Source of the DNA: Amphiscolops sp. MND2022
Lineage: Eukaryota
Length of the DNA: 64,000 nucleotides
NCBI GenBank assembly: GCA_964187785.1
Contig: OZ076409.1
Coordinates: 76,818,001-76,882,000 of the forward strand
Direction: 5' to 3'
A model generated the notes under the pieces. It made no database searches. It was not told the origin of the DNA and saw only the letters and a list, made by a program, of their open reading frames with translations. Both the position numbers and the translations under genes were made by a program. This document shows positions 31,080-59,456 of this stretch, in pieces (positions within the stretch are counted from its first letter, which is position 1; each line of letters opens with the position of its first letter).

Positions 31080-31500
31080 GCGCCAAGACTCAAAAATAGC
31101 AAAAGTACTTCAAAGTGTGAAGGATGTTTTTACAGTACCCGAAAAACCCAAAAGTTGGACCGAATTGGCGCGCCGGGCCCGTTAACGCGGATCCCTGGCG
31201 CGCTAAAAGGGGACACGTTGGGATTTTTCAACATTTCTATCGCAAAACATCAAAAAATTGAAGGGGGACCCTTCGAAGTCATTAAAAAATTTTTCTCTCA
31301 CAATGCCGAAAAAACTTAAAGGTGGGACCCTTTAGTCTCGCTCGGTATTGTATGTTAGCGGAAAAAAGGAAATACCTTTTTAGTTCAGTTCTCTAGGCCA
31401 AATGGTTCAACTTGACACCAATAAAGGTTTGTAGAACAATTTTAGTCAGTTCGTGTGGATTGAAAAAAAGTCGCGTTTCATTTCATGAAGCGCCGACTAA
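31080..31500 (+). repeat. Dispersed repeat family copy (inverted homolog at ~46300-46780)
   Basis: TTCAGTTCTCTAGGCCAAATGGTTCAACTTGACAC and GGGACCCTTTAGTCTCGCTCGGTATTGTATGTTAGCGGAAAAA match reverse complements at ~46378-46480. Confidence 0.75.
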
Positions 31501-31800: not shown

Positions 31801-32114
31801 CCCAGTACGACGATCTTTCCTTCGATCTTATTCCGGAGATTTTGATTTATTGCAAGAAATCAGTGTCTACACTGAAAAAGGGTGTAACGACCCGGCAATA
31901 GAATTATCATACGAATATGACTATTTTTAGAACACTTGATCGAAATTTTGAAATCTTGGAGTTTTTTCTATCTCAGTGAGATTCGATTTCGATCTTGGGA
32001 TAATGATACATCTTGGTACGATCTCAGCAATAATCTTGTTATGGGATCCATGGTTACCGAGATGTAGTAAGAGTTTGGCAAGATCTTGTCATGGCAGCCA
32101 AGATGCTATGCTAG

Positions 32115-32814
32115 TATAGCGGACAGTAAACAGGAAATGAATTTTTTAATACATGTGAGACTTCATACACGTTACATATACACATCTATATATTGAAAAA
32201 TATTAACAGCGTTGCTTAATATACATTGTAACAATTGTTGTGCACATTTTACTTTTTTTAAAATATTTTACAAACAATTATCCAGGCAGTTCCAGGCAGT
32301 GTGCATTTTAAAAAGCCTTGTGGTCGTTTCTAAAAATTTAGCTGCCTTGTAGTAATAAATATTTTGTTGAGTCTGATTCAGCTTCCCAATTGTTCAGCCG
32401 CCCCCTTATTTCAGCTGCCCCTTATTTAAAGCTGCTCTTATTATTTTATGCGCCCAATTCAGCTGCTCCTTTATTAACATTCATCAAAAGCCCCACTCTT
32501 ACCCAGTGCAGGATTAATTATTTATTCGTTTCTTGCACCTGCAGAAGTATCTTCAGAAACCGAAAACTATCACAGCCATAACATCATTCATCAAGCCAAA
32601 TGTAAGTTGCTGTTTGTTACTTAATAATTTTGGTCAGTAAATATCGTTCTTTAAAATTGAGTTTTCATATTCTTATAGACTTTTTTTCTTGTCCTTTTTT
32701 TTAGAAATATCCACTAGTCATTTTTAAAAACAAAATATATCCATTTACCCCAACAATCGCCCTGCGCATCGAAAGTTGAAACGAATTCAAATCTAGTAAA
32801 AAGCGATTGTTGAA
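32115..32814 (+). repeat. 5' LTR of element 1 (700 bp)
   Basis: Matches 44175-44874 with two substitutions seen (32721/44781 and 32812/44872). Contains a TCCAGGCAGT tandem, CAGCTG-CCCTTATT repeats (~32395-32475) and a TATTTAAA TATA-like box near 32424. Confidence 0.95.
32600..32607 (+). promoter_or_regulatory. Candidate major splice donor AT|GTAAGT in the LTR of element 1
   Basis: Consensus GTAAGT at 32602-32607, preceded by AT and downstream of the TATA-like box. Compatible with three AG|G acceptors (see findings). Confidence 0.65.
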
Positions 32815-32815
32815 A

Positions 32816-32833
32816 TGGTGACAAGGGTGGGAT
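32816..32833 (+). promoter_or_regulatory. Primer-binding site of element 1 (Leu-type tRNA-like)
   Basis: TGGTGACAAGGGTGGGAT lies 1 nt after the LTR. TGG-T plus a GTGGG-AT T-arm complement fits a Leu-type (class II) tRNA 3' end. The exact isoacceptor is not determined. Confidence 0.8.
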
Positions 32834-33222
32834 ATTTGTAAAAAGAGAAGTTTTTTTACAAAAAAAAAATTTTAAAGTAACTTAGAACCCCCATCAAAAC
32901 ATTCTTAGTCCTAGACCCGATCCAAAAATTTTTTTTTGAAATGTGCCATTTCCTGGTTCGCCAGTGTTGCCCATAAGATTCCCAATCCGGACATGGTCCG
33001 TGCCTAGTTTTCCAGCTCAATGCTGTGTCTTTCCGCTTCGGCGTGTCTCAGGCTTTAAAATGGCACATTTGACCCAATGCCCTTAAGTTTTAAGAAGTTA
33101 CACGGTAAGTGCTTGTCATAAAACAAACAGTAGCCAATTTTTTGTAACATTTCTATCAAAATAGTTCCGTTTTCTTTTTGATAACCTAAATTCTAATAAC
33201 CGCCGCGAGTTTTTTTGTTGAT

Positions 33223-33492
33223 ATGCCTTGTGCTCACAATACGCATTCTCACCTACCGTTGTACGTTTTTCCCCAACGACCGCTTCGACCATCAAGTCCT
33301 CCGCCCTCTTACAGCGAAACACGTGAAAGACCGATATTCACGCCCTGTTTTTTTAGTTTTCTACTCTTGATCCTCCGTTTTGCGCTTCTCTTGACCGTTT
33401 TAGCCCTTTGTGCGATGTCGTACGAAATCAACAAGATAAATATAACTTGTAAAGCACTTCAAACCCAAAGAGTGGACTATACGTCTCTGTAG
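33223..33492 (+). CDS. ORF A: 89-aa single-pass membrane protein with PPSY motif, in the leader of element 1
   Basis: ATG start, PSSPPPSY motif, hydrophobic FFSFLLLILRFALLLTVLALCAM helix, and an NIT sequon downstream of the helix. Confidence 0.45.
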   Translation: MPCAHNTHSHLPLYVFPQRPLRPSSPPPSYSETRERPIFTPCFFSFLLLILRFALLLTVLALCAMSYEINKINITCKALQTQRVDYTSL

Positions 33493-33502
33493 GAGCGGCC
33501 TA

Positions 33503-33901
33503 ATGTATACTTTTAGCATACCTGTTTCCGTTTTGTCAAACACACCGCCTCAAAACTTCGTTATTCCTTGCTACTTCTGCCAAGTGAAACTTTTCAAAAT
33601 TCCATTATCGCATCAACCAGAACGTCGTTTTACGGCACATGAACTGTCGATTCATTTGCGTCTTGAGGCTATCCACAATTGGCAACATCGAAACGTTTGT
33701 TCAACTTTCCCGTATGGTCGTGTTGATAACAATGCAAGTGTAAAAGCTTCCTGTGCGTCCTTTTTCCCTCAATTATCCAATATTTGGGCTTCTCATATTC
33801 AATTTCTAGCAATACACGTAACGAATCCATTCTTTTTGGTCTATCCCGACTGCAAACCACCTAGTCTCAATTTTGGTCCGCTGCGAATGGATCGCATGTG
33901 A
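33503..33901 (+). CDS. ORF B: 132-aa Cys/His-rich protein upstream of gag
   Basis: ATG start, CYFC...HELSIH...HNWQH...C, and an in-phase splice acceptor TCTCTGTAG|G at 33492/33493. Confidence 0.5.
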   Translation: MYTFSIPVSVLSNTPPQNFVIPCYFCQVKLFKIPLSHQPERRFTAHELSIHLRLEAIHNWQHRNVCSTFPYGRVDNNASVKASCASFFPQLSNIWASHIQFLAIHVTNPFFLVYPDCKPPSLNFGPLRMDRM

Positions 33902-33942
33902 AACGTTCTAGACCTAACGTAGACTTTAAGCGTTCAAATACA

Positions 33943-35163
33943 ATGAGCACTCAACCAAGCACCCCCACAACGGCCACCTCGACAGCGGTAACCAATACCA
34001 CTACAACCCCAGTTACTAGTGGTGGTGCAAGTAGCTCCCAAGCACCAGCACAAGCACCTACCGTGGGTTCTACAACTCCTAACACTAGTACAACCCCAAC
34101 AGCTTCCTTTTTCACTCTGCCTGGCGGTAGACAAAACCCAACAAGTGTTCCATACATAGCCCCGCTTCCGTCATGTCTGATGCCAGAGTCTTTCACAGGA
34201 AAAGGTGATTTCGAAGATTACCTGCAACAATTTAACACAGCAGCACTTCTCTCAGGCTGGTATTCGAACGCACACGATAACAGACCACATTATTTTGCGT
34301 TGCGATTGAGAGAAAATGCTTTGCATTTCTACACTACGTTGTCTCCATCACAACAAACTAACTTCGATATGCTCGTTGACGCGTTCCGCCAGAATTACAC
34401 AACTAATGGCGATATTCTGAAAGCAAGATTGAAAGCCGCGAAGCAGCAACCCAACCAAGATATTTCATCTTTCCTATGTGACGTTCGGACGCTGGCGCGT
34501 CGTGCATATCGGGATCATCCTGCTATGATTGATCCGGTAGTTCTGACGTGCTTCATTGAAGGGTTAAGCGACAAAACGCTTCGATGGGAGCTCCGAAAAG
34601 CCAAGCTAGCCACAGCGGATGATGCTTTGTCCTTGGCTATGGAGCTGAATTCGTTCCTGGAGATTGAGAACGGAAACCCCCAAGCCGCTCAAACAGTTAA
34701 CCGAGTTAGTACTTCTTCTGAAGCGGAGCCATCAGCGTCCAAAATTATGGCTGATTTTGTTCGATCATTACAAACTGAACTTCAGTCGTCAACGTATCGG
34801 TCCAATAATGATTTCCATCAACGAGGAGACACAAAATCATCAAACAGAAATGATCACTCGAGATCGCAGAGTAATGATTCCAATCGGAGTGGCCAGTCAG
34901 TACGATTTCAGTCGTCACAAGGACGCGAACGACCAAATAACGCAGGCAGATCTGACAAAACACAAAAACAACAGTATCGCCAAGATTCCCCCCATCCCAA
35001 GAAACAAGGCAACAATAACAACACGCAAAACAATCGGAAGCCGTGCGAGCGTTGCACACGCAAAAATCATACAACGAAGGAGTGCAAAGCTTGTTTCAAT
35101 TGTTTGAGAGTCGGTCATTTCCAGAATGAATGCAAGGCTCCCAAAAGGGAACATTTAAACTAG
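33943..35163 (+). CDS. gag: Gag of element 1 (capsid plus two CCHC zinc knuckles)
   Basis: ATG at 33943 in ACAATGA context, capsid motif PESFTGKGDFEDYLQQF...GW, and knuckles CERCTRKNHTTKEC and CFNCLRVGHFQNEC. Confidence 0.95.
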   Translation: MSTQPSTPTTATSTAVTNTTTTPVTSGGASSSQAPAQAPTVGSTTPNTSTTPTASFFTLPGGRQNPTSVPYIAPLPSCLMPESFTGKGDFEDYLQQFNTAALLSGWYSNAHDNRPHYFALRLRENALHFYTTLSPSQQTNFDMLVDAFRQNYTTNGDILKARLKAAKQQPNQDISSFLCDVRTLARRAYRDHPAMIDPVVLTCFIEGLSDKTLRWELRKAKLATADDALSLAMELNSFLEIENGNPQAAQTVNRVSTSSEAEPSASKIMADFVRSLQTELQSSTYRSNNDFHQRGDTKSSNRNDHSRSQSNDSNRSGQSVRFQSSQGRERPNNAGRSDKTQKQQYRQDSPHPKKQGNNNNTQNNRKPCERCTRKNHTTKECKACFNCLRVGHFQNECKAPKREHLN

Positions 35164-38100
35164 AAATGTCTACCCTAGCGGGTCACAGCGCAGACAAGAC
35201 CACAAACCGAGGCCCACAAATTCAGACTCTTAACTCTGTGGTGGATCACAGAAGTGTATTCGTCCAATTATCCATTTTTAATACGGTGATTGAGGCTGTG
35301 TGTGATAGTGGAGCAAGTGTGTCTTGCCTGAGTTCTGATGCATTTGGGAAATTGAAGAACGGGAAGAATTTAGAGCTAAAACCGTCAGACACGAAGCTTG
35401 TAGCAGCCAACAAACAACCTATAGTAACATGCGGCATTGTGCAACTACCTTTGCAAATCGGTCCGAGACATTACGAACATTCGTTTCACGTTCTGGAGCA
35501 AGCAGAAGCTGACTGTCTACTCGGCTTAGACTTCCTCAAAACTCATAAATGCGACCCGTTGTTTTCCCAAGATATTCTGCGTCTGGATGAAAAGACGACA
35601 GTCCCCCTGTATCATCGTCAGCTCACAGATGCTAAGACAACTGTGTTCAGGGTGGTGGTGTCCGAGACAGTTTCGGTACCACCACGACATACAATGATTG
35701 TGCCAGCGCACATCAAGGATTGGAAACGCCCATTGAATGAGGGTGTAGCAATTTTCGAGCCGCACGAACGGTTCGATGGCTCAAAAGAAGCAGTGGCACC
35801 AAGTATTTTGTTCAACTTTGCTGAGGAAAACATCCCGGTGACGATCGAAAATTCTGGAGAAGAGCCACTGATCTTGTATGAGAAAACAACTTTGGGTACT
35901 TCAGAAGCAATCCCTGATTTACCCATACAAAACGTTGTAACCGAAACAAAAAGCTTGAAGTCTAAAATAGACGAAAAGGACGAATCGTACGATTTGAAAA
36001 ATGTAGTGGATGGAGTTGATCCGGAAATTCCATTCAAAATAAAACAGAAATTCGCAGAACTTGTTTACGAATTCGAAGATGTGTTTTCGCAAAACCAATG
36101 GGACATTGGTCGTTGCGAAGCTACAACACACAAAATAAACGTATACCCCGGATCAAAGCCGATTAAAATTCCGAATCGCAGAATGCCCCTCCACTATAAA
36201 CAGGATCTCCAAGAGAAATTAGACGCGTTCCTGGACAAGAAGTTAATAGCTCCTTGTCACAGCCCTTACAGTGCACCCGCCATGCTAGTCCCGAAGAAAA
36301 ACGGAAAACTCCGCCTCGTCATTGACTACAGACAATTGAATAGTCAAACAATCAAGTCTTGTTGGCCAATCCCTTCGATTGAAGAAATTTTTGACACTCT
36401 AGATGGAAGTTCAGTCTTTTCCACTATAGACATGAGTTGGGGATTTTATCAGCTGCCCTTAGACGAATCAAGTCAAGATTATACTGCTTTCAGCACACCT
36501 TTTGGTTCCTTCAAATGGCTTGTAATGCCGATGGGACTCACAAACAGTCCACCGACGTTCCAAAATTTAATGGAAATCGTTTTGGCGAAACTTATCTGGA
36601 AAACAACAGTCCCCTACCTTGATGATTGTATCATCTTTGCCGCTTCCCCGGAGGAACACTTAGAACGAGTCAGGGAACTTCTAGGCAGATTTAGACAAGC
36701 CAACTTGAAAATAAACCCCCTAAAATGCGAGTTTTTCCGCACCAAAGTCCACTTCTTGGGCCATGTCATCAGCAAAGAAGGCCTTCAAGTTGATCCCACA
36801 AAAATTGCAGCCGTTAAAGAGTTTCCGGTCCCAATTAACCAGACCCAGGTGAAGTCATTCTTGGGCCTTTGTTCCTACTATAGACGTTACATCAAAAACT
36901 TCGCTGAAATCGCTCGTCCCTTGCATAAAGCGAGTGAAACCAACTCGCCTTTTAAGTGGACAACTGAGGCAGAGCAAGCGTTTGAAGATCTAAAAGCACG
37001 ACTCCTCACAACACCAATTTTAGCCTTTCCAACAATGGAAGATCCTTTCATCCTCTACACGGATGCCAGCCAACTAGCAATGGGAGCCGTTCTAGCCCAA
37101 GTACAAAATGGCCAGGAACGTGCTATTTGCTATGCATCAAAGGCATTCTCCAAATCCCAATCAAAGTACTCAGCGACGAAACGAGAACTTCTCGCAATGG
37201 TCCATTTCACTCGGTACTTCCGACATTACCTACTCGGTAGAAAATTCAAAATTGTCACAGACCACAGTGCACTTCGCTGGTTACACAATTTCAAGGACCC
37301 CGACGGTCTCATTGCACGTTGGATTGAAAAACTAGCAGCTTTTGATTACGAAGTGCAACATAGACCAGGCAAATCCATCGGACATGCCGACAGTCTGTCC
37401 AGAATACCAACTGAATCCGTCCAATTAACGCAAGAATGCCGAACAGGAGTCCCAGGTGCAACAAAGACGAAGAATTGCAACAATGACGAGGAATGGCCCA
37501 ACGCACAATCTAACTACAGTATTCACCTATTGCCTAGAGATACAGCATCAATACCACTCCAAGCTATCATTGAACTCAAGGAAAAAGCTAATAATCACAG
37601 CAAAGTTAAAACCGGCGAACTTCTCGAACACGAGCAACCACAAGAAAAGCCTCTACAAGAAGAACTAGTCATTACAGAAACAGGCATTGTCAAGTATCGC
37701 GAGGTGAAGGGCGATTTGTTCAGTTCTTCGGAGTCCCTAGCTCACTGTATCTCAGCTGATTTTAAAATGAGTTCTGGAATAGCCCGATCATTCAAAAGGA
37801 AGTTCCCAGCACAGTATCCAGAGGACTTATCAAAGCAAACTGTGCCACTTTGGGTACAACCATTACCTGGTGACGGCCGTTTCCTGTATCACTTGCTGAC
37901 TAAGGAACGTTACTACCAAAAGCCAACATATACTTCACTTCGAGCTTCTCTGGAACACATGCGTAGCCATGCTGAAACGAACGATGTCCTAAAGATTAGT
38001 ATGCCTCAAATAGGCTGTGGAAATGATAAACTTGACTGGGATTTGGTTCGCAGACTCATCCGAGAAGTCTTTGACGGATCCAATGTATGTATAACTATTT

Positions 38101-40070
38101 ATTTGCCTCCATCAATTTCACTTGAGAGCGAAGGCCCACCCGTAGAAACCGCTAAAGATAATGAACCAGTGCATGCGGACATTGATGTCCGCAATGCTCA
38201 AGATGAGGACGAGGCCCTGAAAATCGTAAAAGAATGGGTTCGCAGGGGTCGTGTGCCGCGGAATAACGACCTACAAGGAAGTCCCGAGTTAGCATGGAAG
38301 CTGTACAATCAATTCCACAGTTTATATCTGGCCAATGACGTCCTTTGTCGACGGTATGAACCAGTTGGAAGTGAACTTCCGTACCTACAGCAAATTGTTC
38401 CCCGTACCTTGGTAGAACATATCCTAACAAACTTGCACTCTTCCGCTACCAGTGGACATCTAGGTTTAGCCAAGGTGATGGAGAAAGTTCGACAGCGTTT
38501 TTGGTGGCCTGGTTTCAAAGAGGATATCAAGCTTTTCATAAAACGTTGTTCCGAATGTCAGCGACGCTCGGATCCTCCCAAAACACATCGTCATTCCCTT
38601 GTAGAGTGGAAAGCTAGTTATCCCTTTCACCACATTGGAATCGATTTCATGGGCCCATTGCCGGCCTCGAATGGAAACAAAGTAATTCTGTTGATCGGGG
38701 ATCATTTCACAAAATGGTATGAAGCAATTCCCTTGCCAGATCAGCAAGCTACAACAACGGCTACCGCTCTTATCGAACATTGGATCTGTCGATTTGGTTG
38801 CCCCTACAGCATACATAGTGATCAAGGACGTAATTTTGAGTCCAAGTTGTTCCAGACGCTCATGACAAGCCTTCACATTGACAAAACAAGAACAACTGCT
38901 TTTAGGCCCCAGTCTAATGCAGTGATCGAGCGAATGAATCGAACAATCCAGAACATGCTAGCAAAATGCGTAAACGCTGAACAAAGTAACTGGTCCCAAC
39001 AGTTACCCTACGTAATGATGGCCTACCGGTCATCTGTACATGAATCAACCGGATATTCGCCTCAATTTCTTGTTCATGGGCGAGAAATTTCCTTGCCAAT
39101 CGATTTGATGCACCCTGCACCTGAAGCCGAAAAACCAATGTCGCCTACGGATTTTGTATACAATCGAAAATTGGCCTTCCAAAGAGCTTTCGAACTAGTG
39201 CGAGCCAACATTAATAAAAACCAAAAACGTCGCAACGCCATTTACAACGAGAAGATCCATGGTCCTACCTACGAACAGGGACAGAAAGTGTTGCTCCACA
39301 CACCAGTGGTCCCAGTTGGCCAAACAACCAAGTTCCACAACCCATGGCGTGGTCCATATGTGATACTTGACTGTTTCAATGAGGTCACATACAAGATAAG
39401 AGAATTGTCTACGTCCAAAGAGCTGATCGTTCACTACGATAGGTTGAAACCTTTTTGCGAAAAACCAGCTACTTCAAATGTGCCTACTCGAAATACTAGC
39501 TTAACCCAGCCCACAAAACCAGTTCACTCCAATGTCCCAACACGGAATAACGACTTGAACACCACACCACCTGAAACCTCGCATCGATGCTGCATGCATT
39601 TTCAACAGCCACCACTGCAGCCTATGAATCTCCACAGCCCTGCTCACCTAAACCACCAGACTACTCCAACGCCACAATCAACTAGCCACAATGCTCAGTC
39701 ACCGACCCAAACCCGAACTCCCGCTTTCCTCTCCGGTAATCAGCATTCCCAATCTTTTCAATCTCCTGGCGTTCAGACGATGGCCACTCCCGCAACTCCT
39801 TCAGTCGACAACCCTAGTTATCGTCAAGCACCAGCATCCCATTCACCTTTGTCAAACGAATCCCGAAACATCGTTGAAAACGCTGCTGTTCAGTTTCGAG
39901 ATATGATAAACAGACCATACAATCTCCGCGCAAGTACACGCACACAGCGATTGGCGGAACCCCTGTGTAATTCCTCAATACCTTCTGAACTAACCGATTT
40001 CAACTCGCCGCCACTGCACAGCATGCCACATTCCACCAAACGTTCCAAAAACTATACAAAAAGGAAATAA
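35130..40070 (+). CDS. pol: Pol of element 1: protease, RT, RNase H, macrodomain, integrase with GPY/F, S/P/T-rich tail
   Basis: CDSGASVS (protease), YLDD (RT), YTDAS (RNase H), HSSATSGH...CSEC plus IDF/SDQG/IER (integrase), and PWRGPY. No stops over 1646 codons. Confidence 0.97.
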   Translation: MQGSQKGTFKLEMSTLAGHSADKTTNRGPQIQTLNSVVDHRSVFVQLSIFNTVIEAVCDSGASVSCLSSDAFGKLKNGKNLELKPSDTKLVAANKQPIVTCGIVQLPLQIGPRHYEHSFHVLEQAEADCLLGLDFLKTHKCDPLFSQDILRLDEKTTVPLYHRQLTDAKTTVFRVVVSETVSVPPRHTMIVPAHIKDWKRPLNEGVAIFEPHERFDGSKEAVAPSILFNFAEENIPVTIENSGEEPLILYEKTTLGTSEAIPDLPIQNVVTETKSLKSKIDEKDESYDLKNVVDGVDPEIPFKIKQKFAELVYEFEDVFSQNQWDIGRCEATTHKINVYPGSKPIKIPNRRMPLHYKQDLQEKLDAFLDKKLIAPCHSPYSAPAMLVPKKNGKLRLVIDYRQLNSQTIKSCWPIPSIEEIFDTLDGSSVFSTIDMSWGFYQLPLDESSQDYTAFSTPFGSFKWLVMPMGLTNSPPTFQNLMEIVLAKLIWKTTVPYLDDCIIFAASPEEHLERVRELLGRFRQANLKINPLKCEFFRTKVHFLGHVISKEGLQVDPTKIAAVKEFPVPINQTQVKSFLGLCSYYRRYIKNFAEIARPLHKASETNSPFKWTTEAEQAFEDLKARLLTTPILAFPTMEDPFILYTDASQLAMGAVLAQVQNGQERAICYASKAFSKSQSKYSATKRELLAMVHFTRYFRHYLLGRKFKIVTDHSALRWLHNFKDPDGLIARWIEKLAAFDYEVQHRPGKSIGHADSLSRIPTESVQLTQECRTGVPGATKTKNCNNDEEWPNAQSNYSIHLLPRDTASIPLQAIIELKEKANNHSKVKTGELLEHEQPQEKPLQEELVITETGIVKYREVKGDLFSSSESLAHCISADFKMSSGIARSFKRKFPAQYPEDLSKQTVPLWVQPLPGDGRFLYHLLTKERYYQKPTYTSLRASLEHMRSHAETNDVLKISMPQIGCGNDKLDWDLVRRLIREVFDGSNVCITIYLPPSISLESEGPPVETAKDNEPVHADIDVRNAQDEDEALKIVKEWVRRGRVPRNNDLQGSPELAWKLYNQFHSLYLANDVLCRRYEPVGSELPYLQQIVPRTLVEHILTNLHSSATSGHLGLAKVMEKVRQRFWWPGFKEDIKLFIKRCSECQRRSDPPKTHRHSLVEWKASYPFHHIGIDFMGPLPASNGNKVILLIGDHFTKWYEAIPLPDQQATTTATALIEHWICRFGCPYSIHSDQGRNFESKLFQTLMTSLHIDKTRTTAFRPQSNAVIERMNRTIQNMLAKCVNAEQSNWSQQLPYVMMAYRSSVHESTGYSPQFLVHGREISLPIDLMHPAPEAEKPMSPTDFVYNRKLAFQRAFELVRANINKNQKRRNAIYNEKIHGPTYEQGQKVLLHTPVVPVGQTTKFHNPWRGPYVILDCFNEVTYKIRELSTSKELIVHYDRLKPFCEKPATSNVPTRNTSLTQPTKPVHSNVPTRNNDLNTTPPETSHRCCMHFQQPPLQPMNLHSPAHLNHQTTPTPQSTSHNAQSPTQTRTPAFLSGNQHSQSFQSPGVQTMATPATPSVDNPSYRQAPASHSPLSNESRNIVENAAVQFRDMINRPYNLRASTRTQRLAEPLCNSSIPSELTDFNSPPLHSMPHSTKRSKNYTKRK
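35154..35160 (+). promoter_or_regulatory. -1 ribosomal frameshift heptamer U_UUA_AAC (gag to pol), element 1
   Basis: CAT TTA AAC TAG ends gag, and pol is in the -1 frame. Confidence 0.85.
37689..38103 (+). other. TARG1/OARD1-type macrodomain within Pol of element 1
   Basis: VKGDLF..SLAHCISADFKMSSGIA..FKRKF...YHLLTKERYYQKPTY..LRASLE.M..H......ISMPQIGCGNDKLDW..V..LIREVF follows the TARG1 sequence motif by motif. Confidence 0.92.
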
Positions 40071-40150
40071 CTTCAAATAGTTGCATTTTATTTCTCTCTC
40101 CAGGTCATTTCCCATCACCAATGGCCTAACAAGGCTCCTCTGTTTTTCAG

Positions 40151-42497
40151 GATTTCCTACTTTCCAAACTCTCAACATTTCTCGTTTCTCTTTCTGTTCG
40201 TCCGTTGGTCGGTCCTGATCTTTGCGGATGTGCAGTTCACAACACACCTCAACGATGACCTGGAAAAACCCGTATTCAAGAAAGGTGCAGCGTTTGTGTT
40301 CAAATACCAAGCTGTTACCTCGGAGAGCGAAAGCAAAGTCCGCGTGTTCTCTCCCTTCCCCAAGATGCCTCTAATCAACATTACCAATGCCATTAACATG
40401 ATCAATGCCTTCCAGACAGCCCCTCGAAGCATCGGAGGTATGTACATCAATACAAACTGCAAGTTTACAGACGTTAATGACACCTATGACCTCCTCCTGC
40501 AACAACTTGTGACAAGAGTCAATTTCCTGCAAACAGAGTTGGCTGCAGCTCAACAAGAGGAAGACACTCTTCTGGAAGTTGTGAATTCTTTCATTCCACC
40601 AGCTGTTAGACAATCTGATGACATCGCACGACCACGTCGAGCAATTGCCGCTATTGCTGCAATCGCAGCAGGTGCCGGAATGGTCTTGGGTGAACCAATC
40701 AAAGACGCCGCTTGTAGTGCGCTTTCTATATTTAACCTCTGTCACACCAATGAAGATCTGAGTCGCGACGTGGAACGCATAATGAGCACACAGCAAGAAA
40801 TTGTTGATACACTGCAGCGTGTTCAAACTCGAAACGACAAGAATTTCTTCCTTCTAGGAAACGAGATTAAACAGACCCAGGAAAGTGTCCAGAAACTAAA
40901 AGAAAGTGTCGGTCTCCGCTTCCAACAAATGGAGTTTTACCTAGTTAATGCTACTCGCTACTTGGCTGCGACTAGCCTTGAGTGTGACAGAGTGATTATT
41001 CGTCACCTTAGCCTTCAGCAATTCTTGCGAAATTACGTCTATCAGCTAGGGACACTTTACACTCATCTCAAGTCGTACCGTGCAGCGTTTTACGCTTACC
41101 GCATTTCGCTCTACTCCACCATTTCCTCGTTAGCTAGTGGCTACATCACACCTCAGTTTCTTCTGCCTCAACAAGTGGCGCAAATTGTCAAAGACTTAGC
41201 AGATGACGAAGTAAAGCGGGGCACCAAACTGTCCCCAGCTATTCGACCTGGTTTTGAGGCAATATACTATGAGATACAATTAGTACTCGAAGTAACTTTG
41301 ATACCACGTGGTATATCTGTCATTCTTGGGATCCCAATGAATTCAAAGTCGTCGACGTTTGACATTTACCATGCCACGCCTCTGTATCAGCCCAACAATG
41401 ACCAGAAGACTGCGTCGCTCTTCAATTTTGCGAACCCTTTTTTGGCCGTATCTACTGACAATAGTAGATTTGCAGAACTCGGTGCTAATACGCTGCAGCA
41501 ATGTTCGGGTAACAATCGTATCAAATTATGTAGAAAAGGCTTCTCGACAACAACCGATGAAACTCTTCTTTGCTTAGGATCCTTGTTCTATAACTACGAT
41601 GTTCCCGCCTTACGCAATTGCGAAGTCCGCGCAGTACTTTTACCCGACGCTCCTCAGGCTTTTTATTTGGCGGATGGAATGTACCACGTCATATCGCGGT
41701 CTCCCACTCTCAAATTCAAAAACGATAGCCAAATTGACGGCCTTTCTATCTCTACTATCACCTGTCAGGCGTGTGTCATACGCCCTAGCTGTTCGAGTAC
41801 ACTGTCTTTCAACCAGGGTGAACTGGTTCTTCACCCTGACATGGATTTTTGTGAGACCCGACCGGAGCCTTTTCTTGCGTCGATTGAGCTGACACCGTCT
41901 TTGAATCAAGTCTTCGCGCATGTACCCGCCATTGGTAGCGCCGAATTTCAGGCATATTCTACTAGTGAAGCTCGTCAGTCAGTTCTTGGCAGTCTACGAA
42001 TGGAACTAGCCGAACTACCTGACGTCCAACACATGTCGCCGGAAACTCTAGATCAACTGACAGAGCCAATCGCTAAGTATTATTCTTCGATCTCGCCGGC
42101 CACATCAGCAGCTTTACAGTCATATTTACCCACCCGTACTGCTTTTTTACTTTCGTCATTGTCCATTACAATGTCTATTTTAACATTTTCTATAAGTTTT
42201 ACTTTGTTTAGACGTCGTTGGCAGCGTCTTTTTACCAATCCTCAACGCTTTTTCCGGGCTACTTCCGGTAGATTCATTAATATAGTCGAATCAATTACCG
42301 CGGAGTATGATTTGACCAATTCTCCATTTTTGTATTTGACGGACGCTGAATTCCGCGCACTGATTTTGCTGGCTCGCGAAACCATTCGTCAAGCTGAACC
42401 GAAACCATCTAATTACACTGCACCCAACGCCCCTACACTTCCACCACGTGTTTATCTTATTATTAGTGCGCCTACTTATGAGTCTACTTCGACATGA
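40151..42497 (+). CDS. env: Env (class I fusion-protein architecture) of element 1; start probably created by splicing
   Basis: Signal-like FSFLFLFVRWSVLIFA, furin site RPRR (40629-40640) followed by fusion-peptide-like AIAAIAAIAAGAGMVLG, a heptad repeat, a Cys-rich ectodomain, and TM AFLLSSLSITMSILTFSISFTLF followed by RRRW. Confidence 0.9.
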
Positions 42498-42559
42498 TTT
42501 AATTGCTTAGCACATTTCTGTCTCACTGTCAATTTCAGCTTCTTTATCAACTACTTAGG

Positions 42560-42955
42560 ATTTCCCTTCCTAGATGCTTTCCTACGCAGCTAGTGCCTGT
42601 TCTACACGTTTCCGTGTTACTTACGTTCCTCTAGGTTGCCTTTCCTTCCTAGTTGCTTTACTACGCAGCTAGTGCCTGTTCTACACGTTTCCGTGTTACT
42701 TACGTTCCTCTAGGTTGCCTTTCCTTCCTAGTTGCTTTACTACGCAGCTAGTGCCTGTTTTACACGTTTCCGTGTTCCGTTACTTTCCCTTAGGTTGTCT
42801 TTTCCTTCCTAGTTGCTTCACTACGCAACTAGCGCCTGTATTGATACACGTTTCCGTGGTGAATCTCTTTTCGCTAAGCTGTCTTTTTCTCCTAGTTGCT
42901 TCGCTACGCAACTAGTGCCTCACAACACACGTTTCCGTGTCCGCAATTAAGTTTT
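42560..42955 (+). repeat. Tandem array of five ~79-83 bp units between env and the J-domain ORF
   Basis: CTACGCA(G/A)CTAG cores at 42582, 42661, 42740, 42821 and 42904. Confidence 0.92.
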
Positions 42956-42988
42956 TTCCTAATTGTTTAAACAATTAGTGTCTAGCAG

Positions 42989-44134
42989 ATGCGTTTCCGC
43001 ATCCTAAGTAGGATTTTCGTACAAAGTGTAATCGGTGCAATCAGTTTTTTTTGTTGTTTCAGGTTCCAGTTTCCAGCAGCTCCAGTTCCAGCGCCCTTCC
43101 TCCTCAGCAGCGGCCGCGTGCAGCCTCTGGCAGAGGGATATGTAGTCCGCTTGTTGGACAAAGACGATTATCGTATCAAGAGAATAAACCCCGCTACACA
43201 AACTGTTGTGCTACAAAAAATTAATTCAAGTAATCGTTGCTTTGCTCGACCAGCTACGGAAATCTGGCTTCCTCCTCCAAGCAGTAACAGCCTGAGCGTG
43301 GAAGTGGACTGCCCTCCCCCTCCAGCAATCTGTGATTGCTCGCCAGTACCCCCTAAATTAATAGTGGACACCTGCGATGTAGCAGTGGATGCGTCCCTCG
43401 ACGCTGACGACAGCATGGAACTCTTAGTATCAGAGTTTTCTTCGGTTGGCGAACTCAATAAGGGTTTTGAAGAAGCCCGTGCAGCAGCTAATAAGGCTCG
43501 CATCGAGTGTGAGCATACGTTCGACCTCCTTTGCGAGGAAATGACTCTTCGGAAGGCAAAGGAAAAGGAAATTCATGAAGCAAAAATCGAGCTCGCTGGT
43601 TTACAAACCAACATTGCTTCTCAAGTCGTCGCCCTCGCCGAAAAAGACAGTGAAATAGCCGCCCTGAAGAAGCGCCTCAGTGCCCTCAGCGACGAAAACA
43701 GCTCTTTGCTGCAACACAGTCTCCAGCAAAGCGAAGAACTCTCTAACCTTAAACTAGCCGCCAACAGGGTTTCAGATGCCCATCTAACCACTGACATGCT
43801 AATCTATCAACTTTCCACATATACTCCTGAACTCGATTTCGCAGATGAGAACATATTCTTTGATATACTTGGCCTGCCACCCACAGCCGATGTCGAAAAG
43901 ATCAATCGTCATGCTAGACATCTTTTAAGACTCGTACACCCCGACAAGAACCCTTCCATCCCAGCCGAAGTGTCCCAACTGGTCCCCTGCCTTAAGGAAG
44001 CGAAAAACGTCCTCACGGATCCCCGGCTCAACAAAGTATACCGGTGTTGCGGTATGACAGGTGTTCGCCGGGCCCGTCGTAAATTACGGACCTGCATGGA
44101 TTGTGACTCCCACATGTCGGACTGGTTCGAGTAA
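42989..44134 (+). CDS. Accessory ORF of element 1: coiled coil plus C-terminal J-domain (DnaJ/Hsp40-type, HPD intact)
   Basis: NIFFDILGLPPTADVEKINRHARHLLRLVHPDKNP...LKEAKNVLTDP (~43850-44053, HPD at 43937-43945) and a heptad-rich region at aa ~155-255. The stop lies 28 bp before the PPT. Confidence 0.88.
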   Translation: MRFRILSRIFVQSVIGAISFFCCFRFQFPAAPVPAPFLLSSGRVQPLAEGYVVRLLDKDDYRIKRINPATQTVVLQKINSSNRCFARPATEIWLPPPSSNSLSVEVDCPPPPAICDCSPVPPKLIVDTCDVAVDASLDADDSMELLVSEFSSVGELNKGFEEARAAANKARIECEHTFDLLCEEMTLRKAKEKEIHEAKIELAGLQTNIASQVVALAEKDSEIAALKKRLSALSDENSSLLQHSLQQSEELSNLKLAANRVSDAHLTTDMLIYQLSTYTPELDFADENIFFDILGLPPTADVEKINRHARHLLRLVHPDKNPSIPAEVSQLVPCLKEAKNVLTDPRLNKVYRCCGMTGVRRARRKLRTCMDCDSHMSDWFE

Positions 44135-44162
44135 TTTGGCTGGCGGGGACGCAGCCTTTCAC

Positions 44163-44174
44163 GGGGGAGGGTAG
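44163..44174 (+). promoter_or_regulatory. Polypurine tract of element 1
   Basis: GGGGGAGGGTAG immediately precedes the 3' LTR. Confidence 0.85.
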
Positions 44175-44874
44175 TATAGCGGACAGTAAACAGGAAATGA
44201 ATTTTTTAATACATGTGAGACTTCATACACGTTACATATACACATCTATATATTGAAAAATATTAACAGCGTTGCTTAATATACATTGTAACAATTGTTG
44301 TGCACATTTTACTTTTTTTAAAATATTTTACAAACAATTATCCAGGCAGTTCCAGGCAGTGTGCATTTTAAAAAGCCTTGTGGTCGTTTCTAAAAATTTA
44401 GCTGCCTTGTAGTAATAAATATTTTGTTGAGTCTGATTCAGCTTCCCAATTGTTCAGCCGCCCCCTTATTTCAGCTGCCCCTTATTTAAAGCTGCTCTTA
44501 TTATTTTATGCGCCCAATTCAGCTGCTCCTTTATTAACATTCATCAAAAGCCCCACTCTTACCCAGTGCAGGATTAATTATTTATTCGTTTCTTGCACCT
44601 GCAGAAGTATCTTCAGAAACCGAAAACTATCACAGCCATAACATCATTCATCAAGCCAAATGTAAGTTGCTGTTTGTTACTTAATAATTTTGGTCAGTAA
44701 ATATCGTTCTTTAAAATTGAGTTTTCATATTCTTATAGACTTTTTTTCTTGTCCTTTTTTTTAGAAATATCCACTAGTCACTTTTAAAAACAAAATATAT
44801 CCATTTACCCCAACAATCGCCCTGCGCATCGAAAGTTGAAACGAATTCAAATCTAGTAAAAAGCGATTGTTAAA
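44175..44874 (+). repeat. 3' LTR of element 1
   Basis: About 99.7% identical to the 5' LTR and followed by the CTAG TSD. Confidence 0.95.
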
Positions 44875-46299: not shown

Positions 46300-46780
46300 G
46301 ACTATTATAGTGACTCTTTTTTTTCTATCCACACGAACTGATCAAAATAGTTCTTAAAAGTTCTATAGAATATTATGGTGTCAAATTGCACCATTTGGCC
46401 TAGCGAACTGGACCAAAATGGTTTTACCTGTTTTTCCGCGTAACATACCATATCGGGCGAGACCAAAGAGTCCCCCCTTTCATTTTTTTTCGGCACTGCG
46501 AGACATTTTTTTTTCGGAATTTTTTTTCGAATTTTTTTTCCTCAAAGGGTCCCCCCTGCATTTTTCGATGTTTTGCGACAGAATGGATGTTGGAAAATCC
46601 CAAAGGGTTCCTCCTTTCAGTTTTTTTTCGGCATTGTTAGATTTTTTGCCGAAAATAAAAAAAAATTTCAATTTTTTCATGTTTTGCGACAGAATGGATG
46701 TTGAAAAACCTCAAAGGGTCCCCCCTTTCAGTTTTTTGGCATTTTGAGACGTTAGCGCGCCACTCGGTCCATTTTTTAGT
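46300..46780 (-). repeat. Dispersed repeat copy, inverted relative to 31080-31500, with internal duplication
   Basis: Homologous to 31080-31500. TGTTTTGCGACAGAATGGATGTTG occurs twice (~46569, ~46680), and AAAGGGTCCCCC is repeated. Confidence 0.75.
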
Positions 46781-50034: not shown

Positions 50035-50046
50035 GATGCAAGTTTT

Positions 50047-54219: not shown

Positions 54220-57200
54220 TCAGGGCTGAGCAAAGCTCGGGGGTGCCAACCTCAGCCCAGCAAAAATCAGATTGCAATCCAACCCCTGCGACAACCAGCA
54301 CCCAGCCCCCATGCAGCGATTTCCCCAATGCCACCCCGACAATCCTGTCAAAGCAGAGCGGCAGACCAATTGTGTTCGAAAAAGCTGCTGCTCCTGAACG
54401 CGAAGAAATCGAACAGCGGTTGTGCACCCAGATTGAGGTGAAAATTCCTCAAGGGCCCAGTTTGTGGGTGCCACTGATGGTCGAGAACGAAAAGAAATGG
54501 TCCCTCATTGACACAGGTGCCAGCTCGAACTTGTTGTGCAAGAAATTACAAGAACAAGTAGGGGGCACCCTTGAGCCCTACGGTGGAGTCGTCGTCGATC
54601 CAAAAGGCGAACCCTTACCCATCATTGGAGTCACCCGAGTACGACTGAATGTGGCAGGTCTGGTGACAACTGAGAAGTTCTTAGTCATGGATGGTCTCAA
54701 CCCCGACGTTACTGTTGGACTGCGGTTCCTGCTGGAGAAAGGCTGTCAACTAGACTGGCAGCACTGCTGTCTCTGGCTAGAAGGCGGTAAACGAAGGGCA
54801 CCCATGACAGTAGCAGGCCCCCTAATGCCAAATGACCCGGACCCGATCCTGACACTTTACGCCACGTCCAACCCAACGTCCCCGACGGTGAAATACCAAC
54901 CAAACCAGCCCCAGTCAGCTTCCCCCGAGCCGGTGCTCGGCACAACTGAAGCTGGAAATGAGAACCCATCCTGCATCGAGGGAACACCAGTTTCAGTTGG
55001 CAATCCGCCTCAAGATGCAGAAGACTTCCGAGGCAGTTTCATTAGTGAAACAGGGTTCCGGAAGCAAAGGGAGATACCCTGGTCAGATGTCAGGGACGGA
55101 AAGGTCAGATTCCGAGGCAGAGCCAAAAGCGTCGTTTCTGCGAGGCGATGGGCATCCACCGTACGGTCTGTATCACCGAAAGGGACCCAGCGACGATCCT
55201 CGATTCCTCTTTGTTTCCGATTGCCTGAGACTTTCGAGAGCTCGTCCACTGCAGACATGGAAGCCCAACAGACGCAACTGGCAGCAGACGTGGAGACAAT
55301 TTTGCAATTGACTGCCCCTGATGCGGACGAAAGTATGAGGCAGCGTCTCAGGCCTCTGATCGAAGAGTTTCGCGATGTATTCGCCCTGACTGACGAGGAG
55401 CTGGGCTCAACGAATCTAACAACCCACCGCATCGACACTGGAGATGCACTGCCCATCAAACGACCCCCTCATCGAATGGCTCCCGGCAAAATTCCAGAAA
55501 TGAAGGCGGAGGTTCAAGACATGCTGAAGCGGGGAATCATCAGACCCTCTAAAAGCCCTTACAGTTCGCCCATCGTGATTGTGAAGAAGAAAGATGGAGC
55601 CAACCGATTCTGCGTCGATTACAGAAAACTCAACGAGATCACGCGGAAGGATGCTTTTCCAATACCGCGGATTGAACAGACACTCGACGCTTTGGAAGGT
55701 TCCAGCTTTTTCTCCACTCTGGATTTAGCCTCAGGCTATTGGCAGGTCCCAGTAGCGACAGAAGACATCCCAAAAACAGCTTTCGTCACCCCAGATGGCG
55801 GTCTGTACGAGTATGTGAGGATGCCCTTTGGGTTGTGCAATGCTCCAGCTACATTCCAACGCCTGATGAACGAAATCTACGGCGACGCATTGTACAAATT
55901 CGTGATAGTGTTCCTTGACGATGTTTTGGTGTACAGCAAAACAGAAGACAGTCACTTCGAACAGTTGCGGGAAACCTTCACAAGGTTGCGGAAAGCTAAT
56001 CTGAAACTGAAACCCAAGAAGTGCAACCTCTTCCAGAGAAAAGTGGGCTACCTCGGGCATGTCATTGATCAAGCTGGCTCACGACCGGACCCTGGGAAAC
56101 TGGACGCACTGCGAACGTGGCCCCAGCCTAATACAGTCACTGGTGTCCGGTCGTTCCTCGGGTTTTGCAGTTATTACCGCAAATTCATCAAGGGATTCGC
56201 AGAAATCGCTAGACCCCTGCACGAACTGACGAGGAAGGGATTGAAATTCACGTGGCTGCCAGAACACACCGCGGCCTTCAATGAGCTGAAAGATCGCCTT
56301 TTAAAGGAACCCACACTCAATTTTCCTGACTTCAACCAGCCCTTTGTCATTGACACAGACGCAAGCGACAACAACCTTGGCGCAGTGCTGTCCAATGTGG
56401 TAAATGGAGAAGAGCGCCCCTTGGCATACATAAGTAGGGTTCTCTCAAAAACAGAAACCATGTATTCCACCACAAAACGCGAAGCCTTGGCCGTAGTACA
56501 GGCACTGAAGTGGTTCAGATCATACATCCTTGGCCTCAAAGTGATCATACGCACGGACCACGCCAGCCTCAGATGGATGTTCCGTCAGAACGCAGACGGG
56601 ATGACTTTCAGAATGGTCCAGAAGCTCCAAGAGTATGATTACACGATTGTACACAGGCCAGGAGCGAAACATGGGAACGCAGACGGACTGTCCCGACGCG
56701 AAGACCCGAAGGAGAATTGGAAAGAAGGCGAGCTTGAAGCCCTTTTGGGTCACTGTCCCGAGCCGACGACATACGAAGAAGCCCTGGAGGAAGTTCGCGA
56801 CTTCCTCAAAGTGGTCAAGGAGCTGCAGGATGCCCGATCACTTGACTCACCCCATGAGCCCCCCGAAGAACCCGACAGCGGAGCATGCAGAACAATTCAA
56901 GCTTCGAGTTTCAAAGTCGACCCAGTCATGGAATTGGACGACTGGTTCTACGATTCCGGTCGGTCGATGGTGCAATGTGTCACAGCGGACTTTCGGCTGA
57001 TCACAGTTCATCCAAGTGACCCTGTTCACGATCCCTTCCTAGAAACCCTAATCCAAGGACTGAAGCGTCAACCCATGCCTGGGGACACACTGGCTGTACG
57101 TGACATGGAATCGCCCCGCTGGCGGTTCTACATGATCACCAAGAAGTTTGCCTGGGAGAAAACCAGTTTTCGAACTCTGCGGGAGTGCCTCTCCCAGCTA

Positions 57201-59456
57201 CAGCGATTGATGGAGGAAAATCACGTTTACAAAGTGAGCATGCAGAGAATTGGTAGCCAGCCCCCCGACTTCCTAAACTGGTGGCAAACCCGTGGGCTCA
57301 TCTCGGAAGTGTTTACCGGTAGCCCTATGCTGGTCTGGGTGCACTATGGCGGTCCCGAAGGTAACGATACCACGGAACTGTGCAGTGCCAGCCAAGAGGT
57401 GCCCACACCCACTATGACCGGAAATTCAACCCTTGGTACAGAAAGCCACGAACAGGCGCCTCCAACTGCCGACACAATTAGTTGGGTCCGCGTTCCCTGT
57501 GATGTGCGAAGCGCCCAAAGAGACGACCCCCATATCGGCATCATTTTCAAGATGATCACTCTGGAGCATGATGATGCTGACCTCGTGGACCTCGGAGAAG
57601 TCCCGTTCACGAAAGCTGAAGCAATTGGATACGGGGATGAAGTGGTTACCCTTTGGGGGCAATGGCCACAACTTACCATCCGCAAAGGGATTCTGTACCG
57701 ATACTGGCAAGAATCTTCAGACGCTGAAAAAGTGTTTCAACTGGTGCTGCCCCTCGTGCACCAGAAAGATGTTCTTGACCAATTGCATGACTCTCCCGTT
57801 AGTGGGGGTCACTTTGCTGTCGAAAAGACCCTCAACAGGATCCGACAACGGTTCTGGTGGCCGCAAATGCGTCAACACGTGGAGAAGAAGGTGGAACTTT
57901 GTATTCCGTGCGCCGCGAGACGCACCGCAGGAAAGCGACGAACTGCTGAGCTACAACCTATGCAAGTGGGGACGAGGTTCAACACAGTTGCTGCTGACAT
58001 CTTGGGTCCCGTGACCAAAGGGGGAAAAACGAAATGCAAATACGTTCTGGCAATGACAGACCTCTTCACAAAATACGTCGTGGCTGTACCTCTGAAGGAC
58101 CTAGACGCTAAAGAGGTAGCCAACAGTCTAGTGGAGAACTGGGTCCTACGATTTGGCGTGCCCGACGTCTTACACACTGACCAAGGCACAAACTTCAACA
58201 GTGACCTGATGAAGGAGGTTTGCAGTCTTCTCCAAATCGACAAAAGTTGGACAACTGCATATCACCCTGAGGGAAACGGTCAAGTGGAGAGGTTCAACAG
58301 AGTGATTGCCGATACCATCTCGAAATACTGTGCGGAAAACCCAAGAACATGGGACGAATTTCTGCCCTATGTGACTTTTGTCTACAACACCACGGTCCAC
58401 AAGACGACGAGAGCAACCCCTTTCAGTCCGATATATGGACAGGAAAGCCAGTACCCGATTGATTTGTTTTATCCCAAGCCAATAGACTACGAATACAAGG
58501 AGGGGGCTGATTTTGCTGCTCAACTTCACGAGACGTTCCGCGAAGTCCAAGCTAACGCTAGGCAAGTTTTGGGAAGCACGCAGCGCAGGCGGAAAGACCT
58601 CTATCACAAAAAAGTGTATGGAGAACCCTACAAGGAGGGGGACAAAGTGTGGCTGTTCTCCCCTCACAAAGCTAAATCGAGGAAGTTCTTCCTTCCCTGG
58701 GAGGGACCGTATGTGGTAGGAGAACGACTGAATGAGGTAATCTACAAGGTCTGGAAGGAGTCTAAGCAACTGAAGTGGTTCACCGTCCACTTCAACCGAC
58801 TCAAACCCTACAAGTGCGCCCAACCGGAACTACGACAGTTCAGCAGACCCCGGCCTCATGCCGAGGAAGTTGCTTTCGACTACCGTCTTTGGGGGGACTC
58901 ACTCCTAGAGCTAGACACGCCTTCACCATCGCCCCCCACCAGAAAAACGAATGCTGCTCCGCCAGTTCCCAAGGAAGGACAACCAACGGAGCCAGAGGGG
59001 TTGGAGTTGACCATCAGTGTACCGGACATTGACAACGAACAACCCCCACCAATCTTCACTCCTTCGACCCCCGTCCCTGGTAGCGCCCTGCCCCCTTACA
59101 CTTTCATAGACGACCCTTCCCCCCCACTGCATGCAATAGTTGCAGATAGCCATCAAGCTGACGAAAATCCTGGGGAGCATGGATCAGCGACACCGCTAGT
59201 GCTTGAACAAACAAAACCACAACATCAAGCGGAGCAGAGCAGGTGCTCACTGCATGAGTCACCACCGCAAACGCAAGGAAGCGAGGAGCGCGACGACGAA
59301 CGACACGGGAATGTCCCAAGTCAAGGGACAAAGGCGAGCGACCGAGAGCTCGGAGAGAACGGAGCTGGCGAGGAGGAGAGTCAGCGTGTGGATCCAGTGA
59401 TGAGCCGGCCGAAGCGAATGCGCTTTCGTCCGGTACGCTATGGGATCGACGACTAG
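54144..59456 (+). CDS. pol: Pol of element 2: protease, long spacer, RT, RNase H, degenerate macrodomain, integrase with GPY/F, acidic Pro-rich tail
   Basis: LIDTGAS, FLDD, DTDAS, HDSPVSGGH...CIPC, ADILGP/TDQG/VER, and PWEGPY. Uninterrupted over 1770 codons. Confidence 0.97.
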   Translation: MLSMPPKGTFCSGLSQSAAEWSFKLVRAEQSSGVPTSAQQKSDCNPTPATTSTQPPCSDFPNATPTILSKQSGRPIVFEKAAAPEREEIEQRLCTQIEVKIPQGPSLWVPLMVENEKKWSLIDTGASSNLLCKKLQEQVGGTLEPYGGVVVDPKGEPLPIIGVTRVRLNVAGLVTTEKFLVMDGLNPDVTVGLRFLLEKGCQLDWQHCCLWLEGGKRRAPMTVAGPLMPNDPDPILTLYATSNPTSPTVKYQPNQPQSASPEPVLGTTEAGNENPSCIEGTPVSVGNPPQDAEDFRGSFISETGFRKQREIPWSDVRDGKVRFRGRAKSVVSARRWASTVRSVSPKGTQRRSSIPLCFRLPETFESSSTADMEAQQTQLAADVETILQLTAPDADESMRQRLRPLIEEFRDVFALTDEELGSTNLTTHRIDTGDALPIKRPPHRMAPGKIPEMKAEVQDMLKRGIIRPSKSPYSSPIVIVKKKDGANRFCVDYRKLNEITRKDAFPIPRIEQTLDALEGSSFFSTLDLASGYWQVPVATEDIPKTAFVTPDGGLYEYVRMPFGLCNAPATFQRLMNEIYGDALYKFVIVFLDDVLVYSKTEDSHFEQLRETFTRLRKANLKLKPKKCNLFQRKVGYLGHVIDQAGSRPDPGKLDALRTWPQPNTVTGVRSFLGFCSYYRKFIKGFAEIARPLHELTRKGLKFTWLPEHTAAFNELKDRLLKEPTLNFPDFNQPFVIDTDASDNNLGAVLSNVVNGEERPLAYISRVLSKTETMYSTTKREALAVVQALKWFRSYILGLKVIIRTDHASLRWMFRQNADGMTFRMVQKLQEYDYTIVHRPGAKHGNADGLSRREDPKENWKEGELEALLGHCPEPTTYEEALEEVRDFLKVVKELQDARSLDSPHEPPEEPDSGACRTIQASSFKVDPVMELDDWFYDSGRSMVQCVTADFRLITVHPSDPVHDPFLETLIQGLKRQPMPGDTLAVRDMESPRWRFYMITKKFAWEKTSFRTLRECLSQLQRLMEENHVYKVSMQRIGSQPPDFLNWWQTRGLISEVFTGSPMLVWVHYGGPEGNDTTELCSASQEVPTPTMTGNSTLGTESHEQAPPTADTISWVRVPCDVRSAQRDDPHIGIIFKMITLEHDDADLVDLGEVPFTKAEAIGYGDEVVTLWGQWPQLTIRKGILYRYWQESSDAEKVFQLVLPLVHQKDVLDQLHDSPVSGGHFAVEKTLNRIRQRFWWPQMRQHVEKKVELCIPCAARRTAGKRRTAELQPMQVGTRFNTVAADILGPVTKGGKTKCKYVLAMTDLFTKYVVAVPLKDLDAKEVANSLVENWVLRFGVPDVLHTDQGTNFNSDLMKEVCSLLQIDKSWTTAYHPEGNGQVERFNRVIADTISKYCAENPRTWDEFLPYVTFVYNTTVHKTTRATPFSPIYGQESQYPIDLFYPKPIDYEYKEGADFAAQLHETFREVQANARQVLGSTQRRRKDLYHKKVYGEPYKEGDKVWLFSPHKAKSRKFFLPWEGPYVVGERLNEVIYKVWKESKQLKWFTVHFNRLKPYKCAQPELRQFSRPRPHAEEVAFDYRLWGDSLLELDTPSPSPPTRKTNAAPPVPKEGQPTEPEGLELTISVPDIDNEQPPPIFTPSTPVPGSALPPYTFIDDPSPPLHAIVADSHQADENPGEHGSATPLVLEQTKPQHQAEQSRCSLHESPPQTQGSEERDDERHGNVPSQGTKASDRELGENGAGEEESQRVDPVMSRPKRMRFRPVRYGIDD
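54210..54216 (+). promoter_or_regulatory. -1 frameshift heptamer U_UUA_AAC, element 2
   Basis: CAT TTA AAC TAG, with pol in the -1 frame. Confidence 0.85.
56925..57345 (+). other. Divergent TARG1-like macrodomain within Pol of element 2
   Basis: SMVQCVTADF...PGDTLAVRD....RFYMITKKFAWEKTSFRTLRECLSQLQ..M....VYKVSMQRIG....DFLNW...GLISEVF, at the same RH-IN position as in element 1. Confidence 0.7.

Follow-up and report, generated by a model that had tools for sequence, protein, structure and literature searches.

A TARG1-type macrodomain between RNase H and integrase of an LTR retroelement, with intact and decayed counterparts in other retroelements

Introduction

Why should the polyprotein of a retroelement carry, between its RNase H and its integrase, a domain that resembles an enzyme for removing ADP-ribose? 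The question is raised by a stretch of 64,000 nucleotides from Amphiscolops sp. MND2022 (contig OZ076409.1; hereafter the window, all features lying on the + strand unless stated), for which a preliminary description had proposed an apparently active hydrolase of the TARG1 subtype at this place. The nearest known system is human TARG1 (OARD1, C6orf130; ALC1-like macrodomain class), from which the present copy differs by its residence in a retroelement polyprotein. Viral Mac1/X domains of coronaviruses and alphaviruses, as generally described, are likewise polyprotein-borne ADP-ribose hydrolases and are used against host PARPs. TARG1-like domains are on record for many viruses (PMC4245714), and macrodomains have been noted in fish epsilon-like endogenous retroviruses (Basta et al. 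2009, as cited in PMC4977317), which are also LTR retroelements, theirs being additional ORFs in Retroviridae. The literature searched, which took in few subscription papers and lay outside the Repbase reports, gave no description of a TARG1-type domain in a Ty3/gypsy Pol. One aphid Pol (P0236) has a Macro domain by automatic annotation, so such a domain in Pol is not wholly unseen.

A recently mobile Ty3/gypsy element

The domain belongs to a recently mobile, virus-like LTR retroelement at approximately 32112-44871 of the window (hereafter referred to as E1). Its 5' LTR (32112..32811, 700 nt, with ends uncertain by about 3 nt) and 3' LTR (44172..44871, with a polypurine tract just upstream) differ by 1 mismatch over 700 nt, lack both the TG start and the CA end, and are accompanied by a CTAG 4-mer at 32111-32114 and 44875-44878 that may be the target duplication. 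A putative tRNA primer-binding site beginning TGG (32816..32833) lies directly after the 5' LTR. LTRs, gag, a pol ordered PR-RT-RH-IN, primer-binding site and polypurine tract are all present, as expected for Ty3/gypsy (Metaviridae), and since E1 Pol clusters at 90% identity in a group of 60 sequences, the family is multicopy and young. On either side, at 31083-31469 and 46318-46883, lie long inverted repeats that are 80-86% complementary, which suggests that the target of the E1 insertion was an older foldback element or DNA transposon.

The gag ORF (33865..35163, first ATG at 33943) encodes a Retrotrans_gag domain (E 1e-7) and a zinc knuckle by Pfam, and is overlapped by the pol ORF (35130..40070, 1646 aa, assigned by Pfam) in the -1 frame. 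A T TTA AAC heptamer at 35154-35160, ahead of the gag stop, is of a type from which we infer that a -1 frameshift makes the Gag-Pol product. The order of domains in Pol is protease, RT, RNase H, macrodomain, a pre-integrase 'mini' region and integrase, with the DSGA, YLDD, TDAS, HHCC and D-D-E motifs all intact. RNase H (37035..37400, aa 636-757; PF17917, E 6e-34) is followed by a linker (37407..37688) whose length differs among 7 related families, then by the TARG1-class macrodomain (37689..38102, aa 854-991), a conserved region (38190..38396, 39-77% identity over the 7 families) that is probably the 'mini' domain of Ty3/gypsy bridges, a name taken from the bridge description of PMC13524379, and finally the zinc finger and catalytic core of the integrase (38397..39089; PF17921, E 3e-21, and PF00665, E 8e-10). 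The Pfam assignments thus bear out the in-frame placement between RNase H and integrase that had been claimed for the domain.

Downstream of pol is an env-like ORF (40071..42497) with no Pfam match, which may be F-type; its Atlas features point to Fusion_gly/Baculo_F clusters at 0.94, a lead only given the low recognition score. An F- or gB-type fusogen at this place would make E1 an errantivirus in the broad sense of an env-bearing Ty3/gypsy element. It is 24% identical to the env-like ORF of a second element in the window, and a profile of these two sequences matched only irrelevant repeats when compared with the PDB. A further, fourth ORF (42986..44134) is coiled-coil-like in its middle and carries at its C-terminus a DnaJ domain (PF00226, E 4e-10), the HPD of which is kept in 8 of 8 cluster members. 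Such a J-domain accessory gene between env and the 3' LTR is unusual for an LTR element; between env and this ORF, a repeat of 79-83 nt occurs five times (42547-42940).

Subtype and active site of the macrodomain

The E1 domain is predicted to have a macro fold of the minimal type, with TARG1 and DarG nearest in the fold comparison, and it matches the TARG1 pattern TKx(30,35)Px[IL]GxGxD published together with the roles of H32, C33, S35, T83, K84, the GxG loop and D125 (PMC6397177, in its account of the active site). The structure comparison called for in the preliminary description returned macrodomains as best matches, and the assignment to the TARG1 subtype is confirmed on both fold and pattern. 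With residue roles as given in the relevant parts of PMC6397177 and PMC8501950, alignment to human TARG1 places H32, C33, S35, T83, K84, G123 and D125 opposite H872, C873, S875, T924, K925, G964 and D966, all identical, so that the four distal-ribose contacts (the first four pairs) are all present; G883 is a further residue of the site. The Lys and Asp for which catalysis had been claimed are indeed the equivalents of K84 and D125, with K925 encoded at 37902 and D966 at 38025 of the window.

It is also important to consider the departures from the human enzyme. The diphosphate loop, canonically GxGLD, keeps GxG and Asp and has N965 in place of Leu124, a position that is Leu in 132 of 148 close relatives and Asn in none of them. 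This Asn had been missed in the earlier survey of residues, which was right about the Lys and Asp, as had the decayed copy described below. Since N965 is common to all 7 of the E1 family members that cover the site (of 15 listed), it is not a private lesion. Relative to human TARG1, E1 also has Ser-Ser for Gly41-Ala42 and a Pro-rich segment instead of the Gly-Gly turn and the helix that follows it. The TARG1 basic triad K50/R86/R126 corresponds to R890/R927/K967, and in the E1 clade the R890 and R927 positions are basic in 16 of 17 members. The basic patch is a soft sign, because just 6 of the 17 have a basic residue at the K967 (R126) position, and of 14 non-retroelement fusions just 1 has one at the K50 position.

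The DarG antitoxin macrodomain is 22% identical to the E1 domain, and according to PMC9411070 it is missing the dyad Asp. An identity as DarG is ruled out by the NCBIfam DarG profile, which scores 45.6 bits against a cut-off of 250, and by the lack of a DarT-type transferase (toxin partner) among the E1 ORFs scanned with Pfam. The best viral fold matches of the domain model come from arthropod-associated RNA viruses.

Conservation within the E1 clade

At the protein level, we compared E1 with one member from each of the 7 related families. Macrodomain identity is 54-61%, lying between linkers that share 5-23% (RNase H side) and 3-14% (integrase side); identity is 64-86% for RNase H and, over the 6 of 7 families that cover it, 74-82% for the integrase core. 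Within the domain, 11 of 15 ligand-site positions are invariant vs. 26 of the 123 others (Fisher p 9e-5, overstated since the rows are related). All six key residues are kept by 15 of 17 clade members, and one family member has the catalytic Asp replaced by Asn. Conservation of this kind points to selection for function, and on these sequence grounds we consider it quite likely that the E1 domain is enzymatically active.

A decayed copy in a neighboring element

The second element (E2, 48949 to beyond 64000) is a full-length-looking LTR element with gag, pol (54129-59456) and an env-like ORF, and its LTRs show 1 mismatch in the 305 nt compared. Between RNase H and integrase, as in E1, it carries a TARG1-like domain (56898..57350) that matches human TARG1 at E 2e-6 and is 29% identical to the E1 domain. 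The Lys is the sole key residue kept with confidence; the His, the Gly-Ile-Ala loop and the GxG loop are lost. In the RT/RNase H tree the E2 RT is far from that of E1, and an exact look-up of E2 Pol with 8 start choices gave no match. The heptamer at the end of gag is common to both elements, though their RTs are distant.

Distribution across retroelements

A scan of 1.84 billion representatives gave 3650 matches at E<=0.001, and a profile search of long proteins gave 151 matches at E<=1e-10 among 4260 candidates, of which 120 are listed and 117 are new. In 104 of the 117 new matches listed the domain lies after RNase H or before integrase, a position favored in these counts because the profile query included RNase H and integrase fragments. 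The context described for E1 is accordingly not special to it, contrary to what had been supposed: the same subtype recurs in the same place. For the remaining new matches listed, the domain lies at the end of a Gag-protease ORF (5/117), before RT (4/117), after the RNase H of an integrase-first element with a SCAN domain (1/117), or outside an LTR Pol (3/117, one of them a non-LTR element), and in two further matches (P0056 and P0109) it comes after integrase. The macrodomain is thus found in at least four positions of retroelement polyproteins, which fits an enzyme that needs only to be delivered. Both Lys and Asp are kept in 110 of the 117 new matches listed, and all six key residues in 64.

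Named hosts among the matches listed are aphids, a ladybird, a firefly and a sawfly, and several aphid gene models with the domain also encode a baculovirus F-type env. The matches listed include no named element from Drosophila, moths or mosquitoes, and an Atlas search with a decayed bridge gave no usable match. To judge from the sequences, a TARG1-type domain, intact or decayed, appears to occupy the spot that separates RNase H from integrase in many insect elements. Among 74 distant insect-type Pols the six key residues are intact in 11 and the Lys is kept in 64; the decayed insect class, like E2, keeps the fold and often the Lys and has lost both ligand loops. The single E1 locus is less special than first thought, and the wider pattern is larger.

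The RT/RNase H tree comprises 85 rows; it omits 8 near-duplicates as well as every row without either domain. In it, E1 groups with 7 relatives in one clade (100/100) and the named insect matches fall in a separate clade of 68 rows (100/100), and this separation rules out E1 as a member of the insect errantivirus clade. The Gag-protease-macrodomain form nests inside the E1 macrodomain clade (100/100), and the forms with the domain before RT and after integrase share one RT clade (100/99), from which it follows that the domain has moved. The topology test does not reject a single origin for all 24 retroelement domains (p-AU 0.095), with 137 columns that resolve little; a grouping of E1 with the insect domains is rejected (p-AU 0.0007), but in a comparison that left out the nested rows and hence is not a fair test.

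Some arrangements are worth recording in their own right. In the P0273 cluster (25 members) Gag, protease and an intact TARG1-like domain share one 829-aa ORF with no RT. Two or three macrodomains stand in tandem in the RNase H-integrase bridge of P0344, P0397, P0254, P0246, P0278, P0388, P0391 and P0400, often one intact and one decayed.

The pseudo-RNase H of insect errantiviruses

Chary and Hayashi (PMC13524379) interpret the bridge domain found in insect errantiviruses as an RNase H that has been duplicated, and describe five core strands of which the second and third are swapped relative to RNase H; in their main text the words 'macro' and 'ADP' are absent. This 'pseudo-RNase H' is present in almost all insect errantiviruses, a group that includes Drosophila gypsy, ZAM and Idefix. 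The strand order of a macrodomain core would give just such a swap.

Compared by published description only, the 'pseudo-RNase H' and the TARG1-like bridge share the position between RNase H and integrase, the occurrence of tandem copies (A-D-D rows of the table in PMC13524379) and aphid and ladybird hosts; E1 itself, unlike the published elements, lies outside the insect clade. A profile of 131 RNase H domains, which is a narrow one, scores at most 4.0 bits on the 74 bridges vs. a shuffled maximum of 8.7, and both bridge models have macrodomains as best predicted fold matches with no RNase H among the 50 listed; on these two results an RNase H is an unlikely reading of the bridge. With a profile of 14 domains from non-retroelement Pfam fusions, 69 of the 74 bridges beat the controls. 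No matching protein text was found in the EMBO J iERV supplements searched. The 'pseudo-RNase H' of insect errantiviruses is very probably a TARG1 macrodomain that has decayed, rather than a second RNase H. If so, well-studied Drosophila elements carry a macrodomain-derived module, and the published parallel with vertebrate retroviruses and their duplicated RNase H calls for revision.

Proposed function and alternatives

For E1, the reading that we favor, at somewhat better than even chances, is that of an active eraser which is delivered with Pol into the particle and clears host-added ADP-ribose from the RNA, cDNA or proteins of the element. Made within Gag-Pol via the -1 frameshift, the domain would be packaged with RT and integrase; protease would probably cut just after RNase H and leave the domain on the integrase N-terminus. 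A hydrophobic-N-x-hydrophobic motif, which we take to be a protease-site-like pattern, is found no more than 14 aa from the RNase H end in 8 of 11 clade members, and none of the 11 has it after the macrodomain; this placement suggests that the macrodomain remains on integrase. The insect set gives no signal for such a motif (19 vs. 17 of 53). Attachment to integrase is not required, since other forms of the domain sit far from it. In catalysis, K925 would attack the distal ribose and D966 would resolve the adduct, removing ADP-ribose placed by host PARPs on RNA, cDNA or proteins of the element.

The likeliest substrate would be nucleic-acid-linked ADP-ribose, which would block RT or integrase. 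DarT-type thymidine modification, among the substrates named at the outset, is weakly placed, as the sections of PMC8501950 on thymidine ADP-ribose know of no animal writer. Better documented as TARG1 substrates in animals are guanine- and uracil-linked ADP-ribose on RNA and the PARP1-made ADP-ribose of DNA. A preprint on human PARP10/15 (bioRxiv 10.64898/2026.03.31.715305) reports that TARG1, not ARH3, MACROD2 or PARG, removes base-linked ADP-ribose from RNA, that this hydrolysis uses K84, D125 and the basic patch, and that K50/R86/R126 are needed for RNA binding and uracil-ADP-ribose hydrolysis; PARP1-made ADP-ribose at nicks and single-stranded DNA is removed by TARG1 as well, as summarized in PMC11102865. 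These DNA and RNA-base substrates, together with the predicted fold matches in arthropod-associated RNA viruses, would fit an invertebrate pressure directed at foreign nucleic acid. The literature searched documents no host PARP that acts on elements of this kind.

The same PARP1-made substrate could concern an eraser with a housekeeping task, which from its place on integrase would clear ADP-ribose at the gapped integration site or nearby chromatin for host repair. The likely integrase fusion of the E1 clade agrees with this, but the domain is away from integrase, at the end of a Gag-protease ORF or before RT, in 9 of the 117 matches listed, and the Gag-protease-macrodomain form, nested as it is in the E1 clade, matches the TARG1 pattern in 11 of 12 full copies; we regard this task as unlikely for E1. 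Position also bears on whether the fold is a scaffold, that is, a structural or nucleic-acid-binding extension of integrase in which catalysis is incidental. In the insect set a median of 13 aa separates the end of the domain from the zinc finger, and E2 and the decayed insect class have kept the fold after losing both loops, so that for decayed copies a structural extension is our best guess. In the E1 clade, by contrast, the domain has a variable linker on each side and lies 89-101 aa away from the zinc finger, and the ligand site is its most conserved part, which makes a scaffold rather improbable there.

The slot after integrase that P0056 and P0109 use is that of the chromodomain in chromoviruses (PMC12440569, as to domain order), and the E1 domain might by analogy read ADP-ribose and direct integration to chromatin that bears it, much as chromodomains do with methylated histones. 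We give this little credence, as the Lys/Asp dyad is unnecessary for reading, yet is kept almost throughout the matches listed, and decayed copies lose the binding loops and not the dyad alone. Retroelements do pick up host sequence, and a neutral passenger captured recently from a host would need no function whatsoever; selective conservation over families whose linkers have diverged beyond alignment largely refutes this, the GC content of the domain (0.44) resembles that of RT and integrase (0.43-0.46), and the domain recurs widely among retroelements, leaving the passenger hardly credible. The active eraser delivered with Pol remains our preferred reading for E1, with the qualification that not every lineage needs the catalysis, because the domain is kept though decayed in E2 and in most of the distant insect-type Pols.

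Taken jointly, the claims that TARG1-type erasers are recurrent and overlooked in animal LTR retroelements, that the 'pseudo-RNase H' is a decayed TARG1 domain, and that intact copies counter an undescribed ADP-ribosylating defense of invertebrates on retroelement RNA or cDNA are put forward tentatively, at somewhat less than even chances for the whole. If active, the domain points to an undescribed host pressure in which RNA, cDNA or proteins of retroelements are ADP-ribosylated. For a small soluble enzyme such as this, the substrate preference would name the modification, and the series from intact to decayed copies amounts to a natural experiment on the conditions under which the activity is required.

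Additional observations

TARG1-like domains also occur outside retroelements in fusions with NADAR, DNA ligase 3/BRCT, PNK3P and uracil-DNA glycosylase (P0045, P0047, P0050, P0076, P0083, P0093 and P0140), partners that form a nucleic-acid repair context. The E2 LTR starts TGTA, and a further E2 ORF at 62697-63344 has no Pfam match. At the 5' end of E2, an antisense ORF of 292 aa (49183-50061, - strand) overlaps the region matching the 3' LTR and has a weak match to an integrase zinc finger (E 9e-4). Elsewhere in the window, a run of N (an assembly gap of 196 nt) occupies 2020-2215.
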